A DNA stretch of 64,000 nucleotides. It comes from a virus. The notes under the pieces are model-generated. The model saw only the letters and a list, made by a program, of their open reading frames with translations. It ran no database searches and was not told where the DNA came from. The stretch lies in the UHGV virus genome UHGV-1378817; one strand, 5' to 3'. The translations under genes were made by a program, and so were the position numbers. Within the stretch, counting starts at the first letter, position 1, and every line of letters begins with the position of its first letter. Shown piece after piece: positions 58,767-64,000 of the stretch.

Positions 58767-59096
58767 TCAGCTATCTTTGTTTTTAGGTTTATACATGCGG
58801 AGAGGTATAGTCTTTGTAACATTCCACTTCCTCAACCCTTCCCAGCTCCAATTGTGGGCGTGGTATCCGGTTATGCATGCACTGCTAGAGTGATCGTAAG
58901 CATAAGAGAACGCTAAGCGCACCAGGTGAGGCCAGTCCTTCCACGGTTGTGGCCCGTAAGCTTTTCTCCAACACCGACACAAACTAAATGTCTCAAGGAT
59001 AGGAAGGATAACAAACCCATACACTGTAACCAAAATAGTCAGTGCAATGATTGTCAGGAACACATACCCTGCAGTTGAAATGATGATCTCTGTCAT
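58767..59096 (-). CDS. membrane protein
   Basis: N-terminal hydrophobic segments (IISTAGYVFLTIIALTILVTVYGFVILPIL). Confidence 0.4.
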   Translation of the reverse strand: MTEIIISTAGYVFLTIIALTILVTVYGFVILPILETFSLCRCWRKAYGPQPWKDWPHLVRLAFSYAYDHSSSACITGYHAHNWSWEGLRKWNVTKTIPLRMYKPKNKDS

Positions 59097-59356
59097 TTGT
59101 CGTCCCCTTTCTTACGGATATAAATGTGAGAACCTGCCTGTATATAAATTTCTCGACCATCTTCTGCAAAGATGTGGAATACACGATCACCTTCGTACTC
59201 GATACGAGATATCTTCATAATTGTCTTTCCGCCTGGGATGCGGATCTCGTCTCCCACAGCGATGTTCCATGCAGATTTAAGCTTAAACATCCGCACCCTC
59301 CTTTGGGAACTCGAATTCTGGCATAGCCATATACGCCACAACAGGGTTGTAATCAA
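59093..59356 (-). CDS. hypothetical protein
   Basis: 87-aa ORF coupled to the downstream gene. Confidence 0.4.
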   Translation of the reverse strand: MITTLLWRIWLCQNSSSQRRVRMFKLKSAWNIAVGDEIRIPGGKTIMKISRIEYEGDRVFHIFAEDGREIYIQAGSHIYIRKKGDDK

Positions 59357-59528
59357 AGTAGAAATGACCGTTAATTATCCCAGTTTTGTGCACATGGTCA
59401 CCAGATCCTGCAAGAACAATCTCGCAAGCTCCGAAATCTACCTTACCATTCTCATCTGCCATGGCTACAATATACTTTCCTAGAGGCATGTTTTCAACGC
59501 CGTCTACAAATGTCCACCCTTTGTTCAT
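59283..59528 (-). CDS. hypothetical protein
   Basis: 81-aa ORF. Confidence 0.4.
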   Translation of the reverse strand: MNKGWTFVDGVENMPLGKYIVAMADENGKVDFGACEIVLAGSGDHVHKTGIINGHFYFDYNPVVAYMAMPEFEFPKEGADV

Positions 59529-59548
59529 ACTTTATCTCCTGCACTTTC

Positions 59549-59884
59549 TTAAGGTAACCAGTAAACAATCTCGCCTTTCAGCTTCATGTCATTTCCAACA
59601 TAAATTTGCCAGCCATCCATCGTTTTGGCAACTGCAGGCCCAAAGTCATCCGCACCCCTTACCTCTTTCCAGGTCCCGTAGTCAGGTTGCCAGATATAAA
59701 ATCCACCTTCTTTGTCCCATGCTCCATACACCACGTTTGACAGGTTTCCCATTGCAACAATAGTGGGCCGTGGGAATAATGCATCTACAGATGCGCCACA
59801 ATATCGGGTATCTTTTAAATTGCAATCCCAAAAGATGTCTGCCAGTGTGGCGGCGATAGCTTTACGTCTTTCCAATGTTACCAT
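59549..59884 (-). CDS. hypothetical protein
   Basis: 111-aa ORF. Confidence 0.4.
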   Translation of the reverse strand: MVTLERRKAIAATLADIFWDCNLKDTRYCGASVDALFPRPTIVAMGNLSNVVYGAWDKEGGFYIWQPDYGTWKEVRGADDFGPAVAKTMDGWQIYVGNDMKLKGEIVYWLP

Positions 59885-59891
59885 ATCATAC

Positions 59892-60083
59892 TCACTTGTT
59901 GTTAAGAAGTTCTAAAACTTTCTGTCTTACTTTGTCAAGGTCTGTGGATTCAAAAACTGTACGGTATCCCCAACTTTGCCCATAGGAGTGACTGCAATCC
60001 CCGTAGCACCATTGCTCAATTTGATAGTATTCAAGGAACGGGTGCTGTCTAACTATGATACCATCTCGGTTAAAAATTACCAT
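59892..60083 (-). CDS. hypothetical protein
   Basis: 63-aa ORF. Confidence 0.35.
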   Translation of the reverse strand: MVIFNRDGIIVRQHPFLEYYQIEQWCYGDCSHSYGQSWGYRTVFESTDLDKVRQKVLELLNNK

Positions 60084-60146
60084 AATACATCGCTCTCTGT
60101 TAGTTTATGCGTATATTATACACTGCAGTTTTCAGATGTCAACCTC

Positions 60147-60398
60147 TTACAGATTGCTCCAGTACAATCGGCATTTACATTTTGGGCAATGAGGTTCTTT
60201 TATATAATAACCATCAGTCTTTGGAACACTTTTTGGTGCAGTTTTAAGATTGTACCTGGTAAAACATCGGAAGCAGGTTACCTCTCCCACCTGTTGATCG
60301 TTGATCCACTCACCAGAGTAAAGTTCTTTCTTGTTTCTCATAATTCTCTCCCAAATCATCTGCAATCTTATACCAAAATCTCCAGCCAGAAAGCACAC
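60147..60398 (-). CDS. small zinc-ribbon protein
   Basis: CFRC...CPKCKC Cys pairs. Confidence 0.35.
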   Translation of the reverse strand: MCFLAGDFGIRLQMIWERIMRNKKELYSGEWINDQQVGEVTCFRCFTRYNLKTAPKSVPKTDGYYIKEPHCPKCKCRLYWSNL

Positions 60399-60592
60399 GG
60401 GAACACTTTGAGGATTGAATCTTTACTTGGCTCGGAAGTTCTTTTTCCGTATGGTAGGTAGAAATACCCTCCTGCAGATTCGAATATAGCTCCTTCGGTT
60501 GTATCTACCACAGCAAGAATTAAGATTTTAGTCTCCACAGTGCTCTCCTCTCTTAGTTGTTGTGGAAACTATATCACCTCAGAAGATGGTCG

Positions 60593-61090
60593 TCAACACT
60601 TTTTGTACTCTACTACAACCACATCAATATCTGTGGTTGCAAGATTAATTACATCTTCTACATGTTTCCACTTTAGACCTCCAATACCGCATCCGATTTT
60701 AGGAATGTAGAACGGCAATGACATACCTTTGAATACCTCGTTGACTCGCTCAAAACCTTTCATGATTGAGAAGTATTCAGCATTGGGCCCTGGGTAGAAC
60801 TGGGTATATAGGTTGATTCCATATACGACCCTGGCCTTGGCAAAATGCTCCCAACAAGAAAACATACCCAGCTTGTCTAGATTACCATAAGCAGTCTCTT
60901 TGTCGGCTGCCAGTGCTTGAGGGAACTCACGGGCAATATCTTTCGCTATACCTGCACCCATTGTGTGAAAGCAGTTACAACCGTGGATCATGTGGCCTGA
61001 CCCTTTCTTGAAAATGGAGATTAGATCTCCCTTTACAGTATCAATAATCACGGTATTCCAGCTCCTCTTCTGCAATTTCCAAAAACTCAT
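60593..61090 (-). CDS. macro-domain protein (ADP-ribose binding/processing)
   Basis: VIIDTVKGDLISIF...HGCNCFHTMGAGIAKDI fits the macro-domain N-terminal pattern. Start uncertain: the longest ORF reaches 61150 and overlaps the upstream gene by about 110 nt; Met at 61090 still overlaps by about 50 nt. Confidence 0.45.
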   Translation of the reverse strand: MSFWKLQKRSWNTVIIDTVKGDLISIFKKGSGHMIHGCNCFHTMGAGIAKDIAREFPQALAADKETAYGNLDKLGMFSCWEHFAKARVVYGINLYTQFYPGPNAEYFSIMKGFERVNEVFKGMSLPFYIPKIGCGIGGLKWKHVEDVINLATTDIDVVVVEYKKC

Positions 61091-61466
61091 CCCAACCCTG
61101 TGGCATATTTGAGTTGCCGAAGTGGCTTTCGTAGTAGAGATTTTTACCACTTGGAAGGTAGAAATCTGTTACCTCATAGAATCCACAATCGTCGCACTCA
61201 CCTTCTTCAAACTTGGCCTCGACCTTAATACCGAGGAAGGTGAAAAGTTTATGGATATCTTCAGTTTCGAACTCCCAGTGAATGTTGTTTTCCGCATCGG
61301 TGTAGAACTGGATCAGCAGACCATTGTCCAGTTTACCAAAATACTCTGTGAAGTAACTTCCTTCCCAGAAATCTTTATGACAAATAATATCCATACGTTT
61401 GCCCATAATAATGGTGTGAGCGTTTTGGGCATCATCACGAATCAGTTTTGGCATTTCATAGATCAT
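61041..61466 (-). CDS. hypothetical acidic protein
   Basis: 141-aa ORF; CDDCG motif. Confidence 0.4.
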   Translation of the reverse strand: MIYEMPKLIRDDAQNAHTIIMGKRMDIICHKDFWEGSYFTEYFGKLDNGLLIQFYTDAENNIHWEFETEDIHKLFTFLGIKVEAKFEEGECDDCGFYEVTDFYLPSGKNLYYESHFGNSNMPQGWDEFLEIAEEELEYRDY

Positions 61467-61534
61467 CTTAGTTCTCCGGGTTCAACAGGTGGTGGTGCTA
61501 CAGGAAGATCATAAAACATGGCTATCACAGTCTC

Positions 61535-61732
61535 TTACACAGGAATTGCTTCAAATAGACCGTTATCTATACCGTCCTTCAGATAGAGATTATATTCTAT
61601 GTCGGTATCTGTATAAAGGGCAGCATCCAGCATTCTATCTGTGAGTCCATCCATCGGGTGGAGAAACCACCACCCACGCCAGTCAAAGTAACAGCCTGGT
61701 GCATCTTCTCTTACACGGATTCGATAAATCAT
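61535..61732 (-). CDS. hypothetical protein
   Basis: 65-aa ORF. Confidence 0.35.
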   Translation of the reverse strand: MIYRIRVREDAPGCYFDWRGWWFLHPMDGLTDRMLDAALYTDTDIEYNLYLKDGIDNGLFEAIPV

Positions 61733-61828
61733 GGGCAGTGGCCTCCTGTTAGTTATACATCCCAGTTTTCTTCGTTCATCACGTCCTCCCGTTCTATGAA
61801 GTTATAATTGCACACCTTTCAACCTGTG

Positions 61829-62245
61829 TCAACAGAAAACTTCAACAAATTCTTCCACAGTTTTAATGTCGTGGGAAAAAGGTTTACGGCTATAACGGGC
61901 AATAGCACTGTCAACCACAGCGCGATACTCTAAATCTTCAGAATATTTCATGAAGCATTGCAGCGTCTCTGGGCAGATAGCTAAATAGCTCCACCACCCC
62001 TCTTCAGATTGGTAGTCGAATCCCATACTCTCCAACCATGAAGCATATACGCCTGCACCCTCAAGCCAGTGAGTATTTTCATCCAGAAACTTGTTAATAG
62101 ACATGTGAGCTTCTAAGCATTTATCCAGCTCTTTTCCGTTAACCAGCCACGCACTGACCGTGGCGCATCCAAAGTCTACAGATTGAGTTGACAGGTTGTA
62201 TTGGTCATAGTTCTCAGGTTTAACAATGATATCTTCTAATGTCAT
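61829..62245 (-). CDS. hypothetical protein
   Basis: 138-aa ORF. Confidence 0.4.
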   Translation of the reverse strand: MTLEDIIVKPENYDQYNLSTQSVDFGCATVSAWLVNGKELDKCLEAHMSINKFLDENTHWLEGAGVYASWLESMGFDYQSEEGWWSYLAICPETLQCFMKYSEDLEYRAVVDSAIARYSRKPFSHDIKTVEEFVEVFC

Positions 62246-62307
62246 TTTTCAGATCTCCTTATACAAAAATGCCCCACCCTTTCGGGCAGGGCTATGTTAA
62301 CTAATTG

Positions 62308-63534
62308 TTAAAAAGGGATGTCATCATCAAAGGCGTACTGTGCTGGATTCTGATCCATTGGGTCATCTTCCTCATCATTTACAGGAGGAGCGTCTACAGT
62401 GTTTTGCTGTGGAGCTGCTTCCTGTTTGGCAGCCTGAGGTTCTTGATGGTCAGTTGACCCAGCACCGTTCTTGATCCAATCGTACAACGGCTCAGCCAGA
62501 TTAGTCAAGACATCTTTTGCTTCTGCAGTAATTGCCGCTGCAAAATCATCAACTTTCGTTTTCTTGTCAATACGGCGACAAGCGTTCAACACCGCATTAC
62601 CGACACTGGCACCTACTTCATCCTCAGTTCGGTTGGTGGCTTGAGCATACTCTTTCTTAAGCTCAATGGTGACTACGTGCAGTGTTTTAGCCACGCTTAG
62701 TGGGTCGTCCACCTTAAACCCGCGATCTAGGATGATTTGCAACGCATTGATGCTATGTCCCGTCTCCACACCAATAGGGTCGTAAGAGGATTTACGCTTG
62801 CCACCAGAGCCTTGGGTGCCGTTCTCTGCCTTAGGTGGATAGGCTTTGAAACCACTGATAATGTTTCCGGTGTCTTTGTCAACAATGGCTGCAACACGAC
62901 CACCTACCACCAGGTCTTTAAGCTGCTCATCAGTGACAACCATGGCACCTTCGCCAATCTTGTGGTCATTAACAGTAACCACGTTGCCAACAATCTGAGT
63001 CACATCGCCATAGATGCGTAAAACGTCCTGATTGGCATTCTGCTGAGGTTTCTGCTTCTGGCCTTGTGATTGTGCACCTTGTTGCTGTTTTTGCTGCTGA
63101 GTCGCTGCTGGAGCCTCTCCTGCACCCAGCTTGACCATCTTAGCTAGTGAGCCTTTGTAATAGGTCTTACCGTTATGCTCGTTTGCCTTCAAAGGGATAT
63201 TTACGATCCATCCCGGCGTTACGGTTTCCCACTTGTCATCAATTTTAACAGAGACAGAGTCTTGATGACCAGGTTTAAGCAGCTTATCACCCATACTGAT
63301 CCAAACTTCTTCACCACCTTGAAGCAGGTTATCAGAGGAATCCAGTTCAGAAATCAGTAAAGAGATGGTGTGGCTGGATTCAATTTTCTTACCTTGCCAC
63401 ACAGTGGTTTTAATACCTGTTGTAGGATCAGCACCTTTGATAGGTTTGATGCTGACACGTTTAATCATGCCGTGAGCCAGTAAAACAGTTTCACGCGGAT
63501 TCATCGGGTTAGCGAATTGTTGAATAACGCTCAT
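62308..63534 (-). CDS. single-stranded DNA-binding protein-like
   Basis: 408 aa ending in DDDIPF, the canonical acidic SSB C-terminal tip; Gln/Gly-rich low-complexity linker before the tail. Confidence 0.5.
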   Translation of the reverse strand: MSVIQQFANPMNPRETVLLAHGMIKRVSIKPIKGADPTTGIKTTVWQGKKIESSHTISLLISELDSSDNLLQGGEEVWISMGDKLLKPGHQDSVSVKIDDKWETVTPGWIVNIPLKANEHNGKTYYKGSLAKMVKLGAGEAPAATQQQKQQQGAQSQGQKQKPQQNANQDVLRIYGDVTQIVGNVVTVNDHKIGEGAMVVTDEQLKDLVVGGRVAAIVDKDTGNIISGFKAYPPKAENGTQGSGGKRKSSYDPIGVETGHSINALQIILDRGFKVDDPLSVAKTLHVVTIELKKEYAQATNRTEDEVGASVGNAVLNACRRIDKKTKVDDFAAAITAEAKDVLTNLAEPLYDWIKNGAGSTDHQEPQAAKQEAAPQQNTVDAPPVNDEEDDPMDQNPAQYAFDDDIPF

Positions 63535-63899
63535 TATTTGTCTCCTTGTTCTTCGTTAGTGTTTGCTGTGTGTGCAAACCCTGCTTGAATTAATTTGTCC
63601 TGAACTTGAGCCAACAGGCCCATTGCAAAACTTGTAGTCCCAGAGAGGGCCATTAGCATATCTCGTTGTTGAGCTACCCAACCTAAGGCATAGTCCAAAC
63701 GACGATATTTTTCTTCTTCACGCAGAGCCTGAAATAATTGTTCAGCCTCCGGTTGTTGTGTGAGCTCCTGAAGTCTTCCCATGAAAGAAGAAAGCACTAG
63801 CAAAAGAGACACTTGATCTTTACTTAACCCTAAGAAAAATTCTTGAGGTTGTTCTTGCTCGTTCATCGCAACCGACGCTTGATCGTTCATTTGTTCCAT
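63534..63899 (-). CDS. hypothetical protein
   Basis: 121-aa ORF whose stop overlaps the SSB-like gene start. Confidence 0.4.
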   Translation of the reverse strand: MEQMNDQASVAMNEQEQPQEFFLGLSKDQVSLLLVLSSFMGRLQELTQQPEAEQLFQALREEEKYRRLDYALGWVAQQRDMLMALSGTTSFAMGLLAQVQDKLIQAGFAHTANTNEEQGDK

Positions 63900-64000
63900 T
63901 ATGGAATCTCCGATTTTATTTGAACAACATAGAAGGAGACACTATTTTAGCATCCCTTCTGTAAATTACAATAGATATTTGTTAGCCAATCACTTCAAAA

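Follow-up and report, generated by a model that had tools for sequence, protein, structure and literature searches.

A macro-domain gene with a GTG start in an rV5-like coliphage, most likely encoding a stand-alone enzyme of the T4 Tk.4/AdfM family

The window analysed here is a 64,000-nucleotide stretch of the UHGV virus genome UHGV-1378817. The 1.5 kb surrounding the feature under study are 99.6% identical to Escherichia phage EduardKellenberger (BASEL Bas59), and 119 phage records show 80% identity or more, almost all of them from rV5-like coliphages of the genus Vequintavirus; to judge from these matches, the source phage is an rV5-like coliphage belonging to this genus. Every gene in this region is encoded on the minus strand, in a long series of small genes lying downstream of those for DNA primase/helicase and DNA polymerase. 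Two open reading frames overlap here, one spanning 60593–61150 (185 aa, with GTG as its first start) and the other 61041–61466 (141 aa), and both were confirmed on the minus strand at the positions given in the original prediction. The features of the junction are as follows.

61041..61466, minus strand: upstream gene, 141 aa, function unknown, phrog_8157
61062..61067, minus strand: Shine-Dalgarno (SD) sequence GAGGAG, 9–10 nt before the GTG start and inside the end of the upstream gene
61052..61150, minus strand: open but non-coding extension of the macro frame, coding solely in the frame of the upstream gene
61049..61051, minus strand: GTG start codon of the macro gene, its position kept in relatives
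61041..61051, minus strand: 11-nt overlap GTGATTATTGA, running from the macro start codon through the TGA stop of the upstream gene, read directly
60593..61051, minus strand: macro-domain gene, 152 aa plus stop, GTG start; T4 Tk.4/AdfM family, phrog_335

Ahead of the domain, the macro frame is free of stops as far as 61170 and offers four candidate starts, GTG 61150, ATG 61090, TTG 61075 and GTG 61051; the overlap with the upstream gene amounts to 110 nt when counted from GTG 61150, 50 nt from ATG 61090 and 11 nt from GTG 61051. The original prediction had placed the overlap at 50–110 nt and proposed that the macro protein either starts at an internal codon or is produced as a fusion by translational frameshifting. 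The arithmetic is right for ATG 61090 and GTG 61150, but the real overlap is 11 nt, the larger values having arisen because the reading frame was followed back to its first possible start. Likewise, the start is indeed internal, but it is GTG 61051 and not the internal Met codon at ATG 61090.

Every line of evidence agrees that GTG 61051 is the true start of the macro gene. The same 459-nt CDS is annotated in five independently annotated GenBank phages, near-identical or related to the window phage, and in two of them, Mangalyan and LL12, the CPT annotators marked the RBS at GAGGAG. In Bas59 the gene bears the tag bas59_0089. Among 38 IMG/VR loci, 27 have ATG or GTG at the codon corresponding to 61051, most of the remaining loci have an ATG no more than three codons from this position, and in most of the 38 an in-frame stop lies 1–15 codons upstream of it; the start codon is then followed by I-[IV]-x-x-[VI]-x-G-[DN]. 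In a comparison of junction sequences, the codon is GTG in L001–L003, L044 and L045, and ATG in L004–L007 and L046. In an alignment of 40 homologues (39–84% identity, mostly 145–160 aa long and devoid of the extension), all 40 N-termini fall within two residues of MIxxTVKGDL, and the 90%-identity cluster holding the window protein, with its 365 member sequences, has a 152-aa representative. The anti-SD duplex preceding GTG 61051 is calculated at −8.3 kcal/mol, within the best 5% of positions in 59000–63900, compared with −5.7 at a spacing of 0 for ATG 61090 and +0.4 for GTG 61150, so that SD sequences at the alternative starts are weak, misplaced or absent; together with their non-conservation in relatives, this rules out both codons as starts. 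Moreover, the first beta strand in the AlphaFold (AF2) model occupies residues 2–8, and because it begins at residue 2, the predicted fold would be complete without any N-terminal extension. The product predicted from this start begins (f)Met-Ile-Ile-Asp-Thr-Val-Lys.

The substitutions found in relatives within the 123 nt upstream of 61051 follow the frame of the upstream gene. Twelve of 16 substitutions relative to nomine (L044) and 8 of 10 relative to LL12 (L045) fall at third positions of that frame and are thus largely synonymous, altering 4 and 3, respectively, of 40 residues of the upstream gene; read in the macro frame, the same substitutions scramble the extension, altering roughly one third of its residues for L044 and one fifth for L045. 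The stretch 61052–61150 thus evolves as non-coding sequence in the macro frame. That it is open is no more than chance would produce (P about 0.37): when the codons of the upstream gene were shuffled 20,000 times, the open run in the +1 frame had a median of 25 codons and reached at least 36 codons in 37% of shuffles, with 41 codons observed.

An extended macro protein (from ATG 61090 or GTG 61150), or a frameshift fusion with the 141-aa protein, would draw on the openness of the frame, which includes both of these codons, and on a T5 run (GAG TTT TTG, 61085) where +1 slippage is possible in principle. The relatives speak against both products, beginning with the in-frame stops just before the equivalent start in most of them. 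The T-run reads TTCCTG in L004, and ATG 61090 is replaced by AGG in L004 and by CTG in L044. In L004, whose macro protein is 88% identical, the upstream gene is cut short by a 2-nt indel, which also brings another sequence in frame with the macro start; its junction is a 4-nt ATGA overlap with an ATG macro start, and the frame relation between the two genes differs from that in the window. In a scan of the upstream gene, the overlap zone contained no XXXYYYZ heptamer, and the T5 run, the only shift-prone element, had no rare or hungry codon next to it; a canonical −1 slippery heptamer could not in any case yield the fusion, because the macro gene is read in the +1 frame with respect to the upstream gene. 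The RNA fold of the 120 nt around the junction was no better than that of shuffles (z = +0.6), giving no stable downstream structure. With neither a slippery site nor a structure present, and neither the frame relation nor a trans-frame product conserved, the frameshift put forward in the original prediction is refuted as far as the comparative data reach. One database protein, P0016, matches both genes and was considered as evidence of a fusion. It links the first 55 residues of the upstream protein with macro residues 87–152, and it was traced to a 508-nt deletion in one assembled contig, located between two 10-nt direct repeats, CCAGTTCTAC (window positions 61311–61302 and 60803–60794); from this sequence arrangement, P0016 is to be read as a broken allele and not as a product of translational frameshifting.

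The overlap is thus an ordinary short stop/start overlap of tightly packed phage genes. Overlaps of 4 and 8 nt are also present nearby, and such short overlaps are common within this gene cluster. A search for promoter consensus sequences between the 141-aa gene and the macro gene returned no strong match, the best scoring 9/12. Since the macro start codon overlaps the upstream stop by 11 nt, the macro gene would be co-transcribed with the 141-aa gene, and the geometry of the junction suggests that the two are probably translationally coupled. Translation would begin at GTG 61051 by means of GAGGAG within the last codons of the upstream gene, and ribosomes finishing that gene 8 nt downstream would probably assist initiation.

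The assignment of the protein to the macro domains, made in the original prediction on the basis of motifs, is borne out by the profile search. Pfam PF01661 (Macro) matches with 25.9 bits against a gathering cut-off of 22 (E = 1e-5), covers profile positions 1–117 of 118 and begins at residue 55 of the 185-aa reading frame; phrog_335 matches with E = 2.5e-59. In agreement, the AF2 model (pLDDT 91.3, pTM 0.88) predicts a three-layer alpha/beta/alpha macro fold. Of the 139 PDB matches (E ≤ 1e-3) obtained with this model in Foldseek, the 17 ranked highest are all macro domains; among the best 50 of the 139, the rest of the list includes macro-derived designed proteins. The set comprising TARG1, DarG, SCO6735, BT1257 and Poa1p (TM 0.69–0.75) occupies ranks 1–26, whereas alphavirus macro domains appear only from rank 36. 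In a profile search of the PDB, DarG (5M3I), BT1257, SCO6735 (5E3B), TARG1 and Poa1p were matched at E values of 1e-13 to 1e-9. Taken together, the profile matches and the modelled fold point to the TARG1/DarG/SCO6735/Poa1p ('ALC1-like') class, rather than to the MacroD or viral nsP3 types. In the NCBIfam and PADLOC collections only DarG models match above noise, the PADLOC model scoring 46 bits for the window protein and 36 bits for T4 Tk.4.

Within this class, the identity of the active-site residues allows a finer placement. Four segments are invariant in the 40 homologues, namely H23-G-C-N26-C, M31-G-A-G34, N80-x-Y-T-Q84 and P117-x-I-G-x-G122, and equivalences to the known enzymes were taken from profile alignments to 5m3i, 5e3b, 2fg1 and 4j5r. 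The codons concerned lie at the following positions.

60974..60976, minus strand: codon of Asn26 in the HGCNC motif, equivalent to DarG Asn22 and SCO6735 Asn27; invariant in the 40 homologues
60800..60802, minus strand: codon of Gln84 in the NxYTQ motif, at the position of DarG K80, TARG1 K84 and SCO6735 Gln85; invariant in the 40 homologues
60677..60694, minus strand: Gly-rich loop GCGIGG, residues 120–125, whose G120 and G122 correspond to G126 and G128 of SCO6735; both invariant

All three of the SCO6735 residues Asn27, Gln85 and Gly128 are matched (by N26, Q84 and G122), and Gln at the position of Gln84 is found in both SCO6735 and BT1257. It was previously demonstrated that Q85A and N27S abolish the activity of SCO6735 or nearly so and that G128E reduces it (PMC9411070), and mutation of the equivalent Asn cripples SCO6735, DarG and PhiKZ AdfM alike (PMC9411070; PMC13309987). 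The alignments thus suggest an active site of the lysine-free SCO6735 type, with neither a TARG1-type nor a DarG-type catalyst. SCO6735 of Streptomyces coelicolor (PDB 5E3B) and BT1257 of Bacteroides (2FG1/2AFC) belong to the same class and have the same lysine-free active site; unlike the window protein, to which they are about 24% identical, they are cellular proteins. SCO6735 also differs in having a longer mobile loop with Lys89, as well as Lys34; these positively charged residues, tested for DNA substrates, are not conserved in the window protein, where they align with G88 and A33, respectively.

The other members of the class are more distant in their catalytic residues or in their architecture. 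DarG (from T. aquaticus and M. tuberculosis; 5M31, 5M3E, 5M3I) is structurally close (TM ~0.73) and gives the best match of the PDB profile search (E = 1e-13), but it is about 330 aa long, with a C-terminal DarT-binding domain and the catalytic Lys80, whereas the window protein corresponds to the macro half and ends at residue 152. Gln84 of the window protein aligns with DarG Lys80 (YTQF versus PTKK), while the Asn is conserved. An identification as DarG proper was considered and rejected: NCBIfam NF048014 scores 45.7 bits against a cut-off of 250, with only positions 2–144 of 338 matched, and the PADLOC DarG profile is matched at positions 3–143 of 329. Human TARG1/OARD1 (4J5R/4J5S) is the top Foldseek match (TM 0.72–0.75) and has the same domain size, but where it has the catalytic dyad Lys84/Asp125, the window protein has Gln84 and Gly (ITKK versus YTQF and GCGLD versus GCGIG), and membership in the TARG1 type was rejected. 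The yeast ADP-ribose-1''-phosphate phosphatase Poa1p (6LFQ–6LFU) is of the same class and shares the HxCNC motif, differing from the window protein in its low identity (22–23%) and in being about 30 residues longer. Its His23, Ser30 and Phe152 align with His23, Thr30 and Gly124 of the window protein; that these Poa1p residues are important was gathered solely from the titles under which mutant structures stand in the PDB. It is this enzyme from which GenBank and PHROGs derive the names 'Poa1p-like' and 'phosphatase'.

The closest studied relative is Tk.4 of phage T4, now AdfM, which shows 39% identity and 66% positives over residues 1–150 of the window protein (E = 1e-43). It is likewise a stand-alone phage macro domain, of ~150 aa, and shares the N-terminus MIxxxIKGD, the HGCNCFHTMG and NLYTQ motifs, and Gln at the position of DarG Lys80. 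Both genes are found among early or accessory genes and both overlap their upstream neighbour, tk.4 by 4 nt (with vs) and the window gene by 11 nt. The two settings differ otherwise: T4 belongs to the Straboviridae, where the gene is flanked by vs and tk and starts with ATG, whereas the window phage belongs to the Vequintavirinae, where the neighbours are of unknown function and the start is GTG. The T4 record describes the gene after vs as 'contains A1pp phosphatase motif'. In the T4-like Krischvirus JK32, the tk.4 slot, flanked by vs and tk, holds a copy with 67% identity to the window protein, and because this copy occupies that very slot, the Vequintavirus gene can be placed in the same family as tk.4. 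A knockout phenotype is known for T4 Tk.4 only: it has recently been reported that tk.4 is the single T4 gene required on DarTG2 hosts, as confirmed by a clean knockout, and the gene was renamed adfM accordingly (bioRxiv 10.1101/2025.11.20.689424, November 2025 preprint). By its published description, the chimallivirus AdfM (PhiKZ gp104) is likewise a stand-alone phage macro domain countering DarTG2, and it removes DarT2 marks from DNA in vitro (PMC13309987); in contrast to the window protein, which is of the Gln type, it has a DarG-type active site containing Lys78, and it undergoes import into the phage nucleus.

We consider it most likely, with a probability of roughly 0.6, that the locus encodes a stand-alone 152-aa macro enzyme, translated from GTG 61051, which would remove ADP-ribose placed by DarT2 on phage DNA. 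The present analysis itself supplies the gene model and fold, together with the family assignment and the conserved residues, and the homologues T4 Tk.4 and SCO6735 suggest that the substrate and the anti-DarTG2 role are most likely as proposed here. Indeed, SCO6735 acts on DNA by hydrolysing ADP-ribose linked to thymidine, and it shields Streptomyces against DarT (PMC9411070). By analogy, the 17-kDa enzyme would bind and release ADP-ribose on the thymidine of single-stranded phage DNA, with Asn26 and Gln84 positioning the distal ribose, as proposed for SCO6735, and replication would thereby be restored in hosts carrying DarTG2. The original suggestion that the protein may reverse host ADP-ribosylation thus remains the best-supported function, its closest studied relative being an anti-DarTG2 factor. 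Against a function on DarT2-modified DNA stand the identity to T4 Tk.4 of only 39%, the genetic nature of the T4 evidence, available as a preprint, and the lack of conservation of SCO6735 K34 and K89. A literature search on Vequintavirus macro domains or on the DarTG2 sensitivity of the subfamily found nothing specific.

The substrate cannot be read from sequence because the class also acts on protein, RNA and small ADP-ribose compounds, that is, on protein Glu/Asp-ADP-ribose, O-acetyl-ADP-ribose, ADP-ribose-1''-phosphate and RNA uracil-ADP-ribose (the latter reported in PMC13036486). A possible, though distinctly less probable, alternative keeps the gene model as it stands and assigns another substrate to the enzyme, either ADP-ribosylated RNA or proteins, or small ADP-ribose derivatives such as ADP-ribose-1''-phosphate (as for Poa1p), O-acetyl-ADP-ribose, or ADP-ribose-based immune signals or toxins. 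In line with this, Aravind and colleagues, in their survey of viral NAD/ADP-ribose systems, argued that small ADP-ribose derivatives are the main targets of macro domains in phages (PMC9503650). Both protein ADP-ribosylation and uracil-ADP-ribose on RNA can also be reversed by SCO6735 and TARG1, and Poa1p is among the closest structures, its His23 and Ser30 aligning with His23 and Thr30 of the window protein. The database names 'phosphatase', 'Poa1p-like' and 'O-acetyl-ADP-ribose deacetylase' point the same way, but the 'phosphatase' labels are transferred annotations, and Poa1p Phe152 has Gly as its counterpart. Furthermore, the sole functional data for the family, those on T4 Tk.4, indicate DarTG2, and the active-site residues match those of the thymidine-ADP-ribose hydrolase SCO6735. 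Multiple activities are, in any event, not mutually exclusive.

More speculatively, the gene might form part of a Vequintavirus-specific split counterpart of DarG, with the macro enzyme as the hydrolase and the 141-aa protein as a separate toxin-binding or DNA-targeting partner, or else encode a lysine-free enzyme countering the ADP-ribosylation of nucleic acids or proteins by an undescribed defence; we regard this as a long shot. About as improbable is the more general notion that the macro protein and the probably coupled 141-aa protein make up a two-protein unit analogous to the two-domain DarG. It would accord with the finding that DarG requires its second, DarT-binding domain for full neutralization (PMC11257639), and with the stop/start overlap, of 11 or 4 nt, that every Vequintavirus relative examined retains. 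The C-terminal half of the 141-aa protein is conserved (FxEGECDDCG...HFGN...WEEF), and its tail of about six residues is variable, the three codons that overlap the macro start falling within this tail; its homologues are confined to Vequintavirinae-like phages, and neither Pfam, NCBIfam and PADLOC nor a fold search detected a family or fold relative, which speaks against a partner of this kind. Outside the genus, moreover, the pairing is not kept: the 141-aa homologue of L005 and L006 lies 1.2–1.5 kb downstream of the macro gene, with other genes in between, so the adjacency does not reflect a conserved functional pairing, and in T4 and Krischvirus the upstream neighbour is vs. The frequency of short overlaps in the cluster weighs in the same direction. 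A toxin partner next door was considered as well. In a Pfam search, the ten neighbouring genes gave no match except for one phage zinc-binding domain, PHROGs assigned the neighbours to families of unknown function only, and these small phage genes showed no ART or PADLOC match and no adjoining darT toxin gene; an adjacent ADP-ribosyltransferase was rejected. Weakest of all, the N-terminally extended or frameshift-fused macro protein discussed above deserves next to no credence.

The gene itself is already known, insofar as its CDS stands in GenBank at the same coordinates and its family already has a named function. Most Vequintavirus records nonetheless label it 'hypothetical protein' or 'phosphatase', and the link to AdfM and to an SCO6735-type site improves this annotation. 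The counter-defence idea of the original prediction was right in kind, and the homologues now suggest a specific form for it, that of an AdfM-like anti-DarTG2 factor. Because tblastn found homologues in 2,825 of 50,697 phage records, T4 included, the function of the family outweighs that of a single copy. For the rV5-like phages, which are candidates for phage therapy, the prediction is that they should resist DarTG2 through their macro gene.

The overlap of 50-110 nt that the original prediction placed at the start of the macro gene has a counterpart in the same gene run, where an open reading frame with a Phage_zn_bind_2 domain, 83 aa long in its mechanically called form, overlaps the preceding 56-aa gene. 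A 64-aa form is annotated in GenBank relatives, and the 83-aa form is an over-extended reading frame, an artefact of the same kind as the macro-gene overlap. This frame, the promoter-like sites, the hairpin and the upstream 408-aa gene lie in the window as follows.

Features of the macro gene neighbourhood
60115-60142, minus strand: perfect (12/12) sigma-70 consensus (TTGACA, 16 nt, TATAAT) in the coding strand, shortly after the end of the 83-aa frame
60147-60398, minus strand: reading frame with Phage_zn_bind_2 domain (PF23903, E=1.6e-22)
60568-60596: TTGACG/TATAGT site overlapping the macro gene stop
62271-62292: strong terminator-like hairpin after the 408-aa gene
62308-63534, minus strand: gene for the 408-aa protein, in the same gene run as the macro gene and upstream of it

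The 408-aa protein carries a long Gln-rich linker followed by an acidic tail ending in AQYAFDDDIPF; in E. coli SSB, the C-terminal tail that mediates protein interactions has the same tip. No Pfam family matches the 408-aa protein, and PHROGs assigns it only to phrog_4477, whose function is unknown; the protein may be this phage's single-strand DNA-binding protein or a mimic of the SSB tail. Between the 138-aa and 408-aa genes, phages bov10K2 and Mangalyan encode an 'endonuclease VII' of approximately 580-620 nt (L001 3509-4087 and L002 3507-4130), whereas in the window, as in Bas59, the two genes are separated by just a 62-nt spacer (62246-62307); the nuclease gene is thus polymorphic for presence or absence.

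A macro gene also occurs in the tk.4 slot of the T4-like Shigella phage JK32 (Krischvirus; L046 1501-1956). The JK32 gene is 67% identical to that of Vequintavirus, whereas T4 Tk.4 is much farther (39%), which suggests that the gene has been exchanged between unrelated phage families.

Several relatives carry broken macro alleles. In the Logan-assembled Vequintavirus contig ERR11560567 (L047 2001-2366), 508 nt are deleted between two copies of CCAGTTCTAC (window 61302-61311 and 60794-60803), giving P0016, in which the first 55 residues of the upstream protein run directly into macro-protein residues 87-152. Of two further relatives, one has lost an internal segment in frame at a WEH repeat (P0018) and the other is frameshifted (P0062). 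Evidently the macro gene can be dispensed with under some conditions, which is what one would expect of a counter-defence gene.
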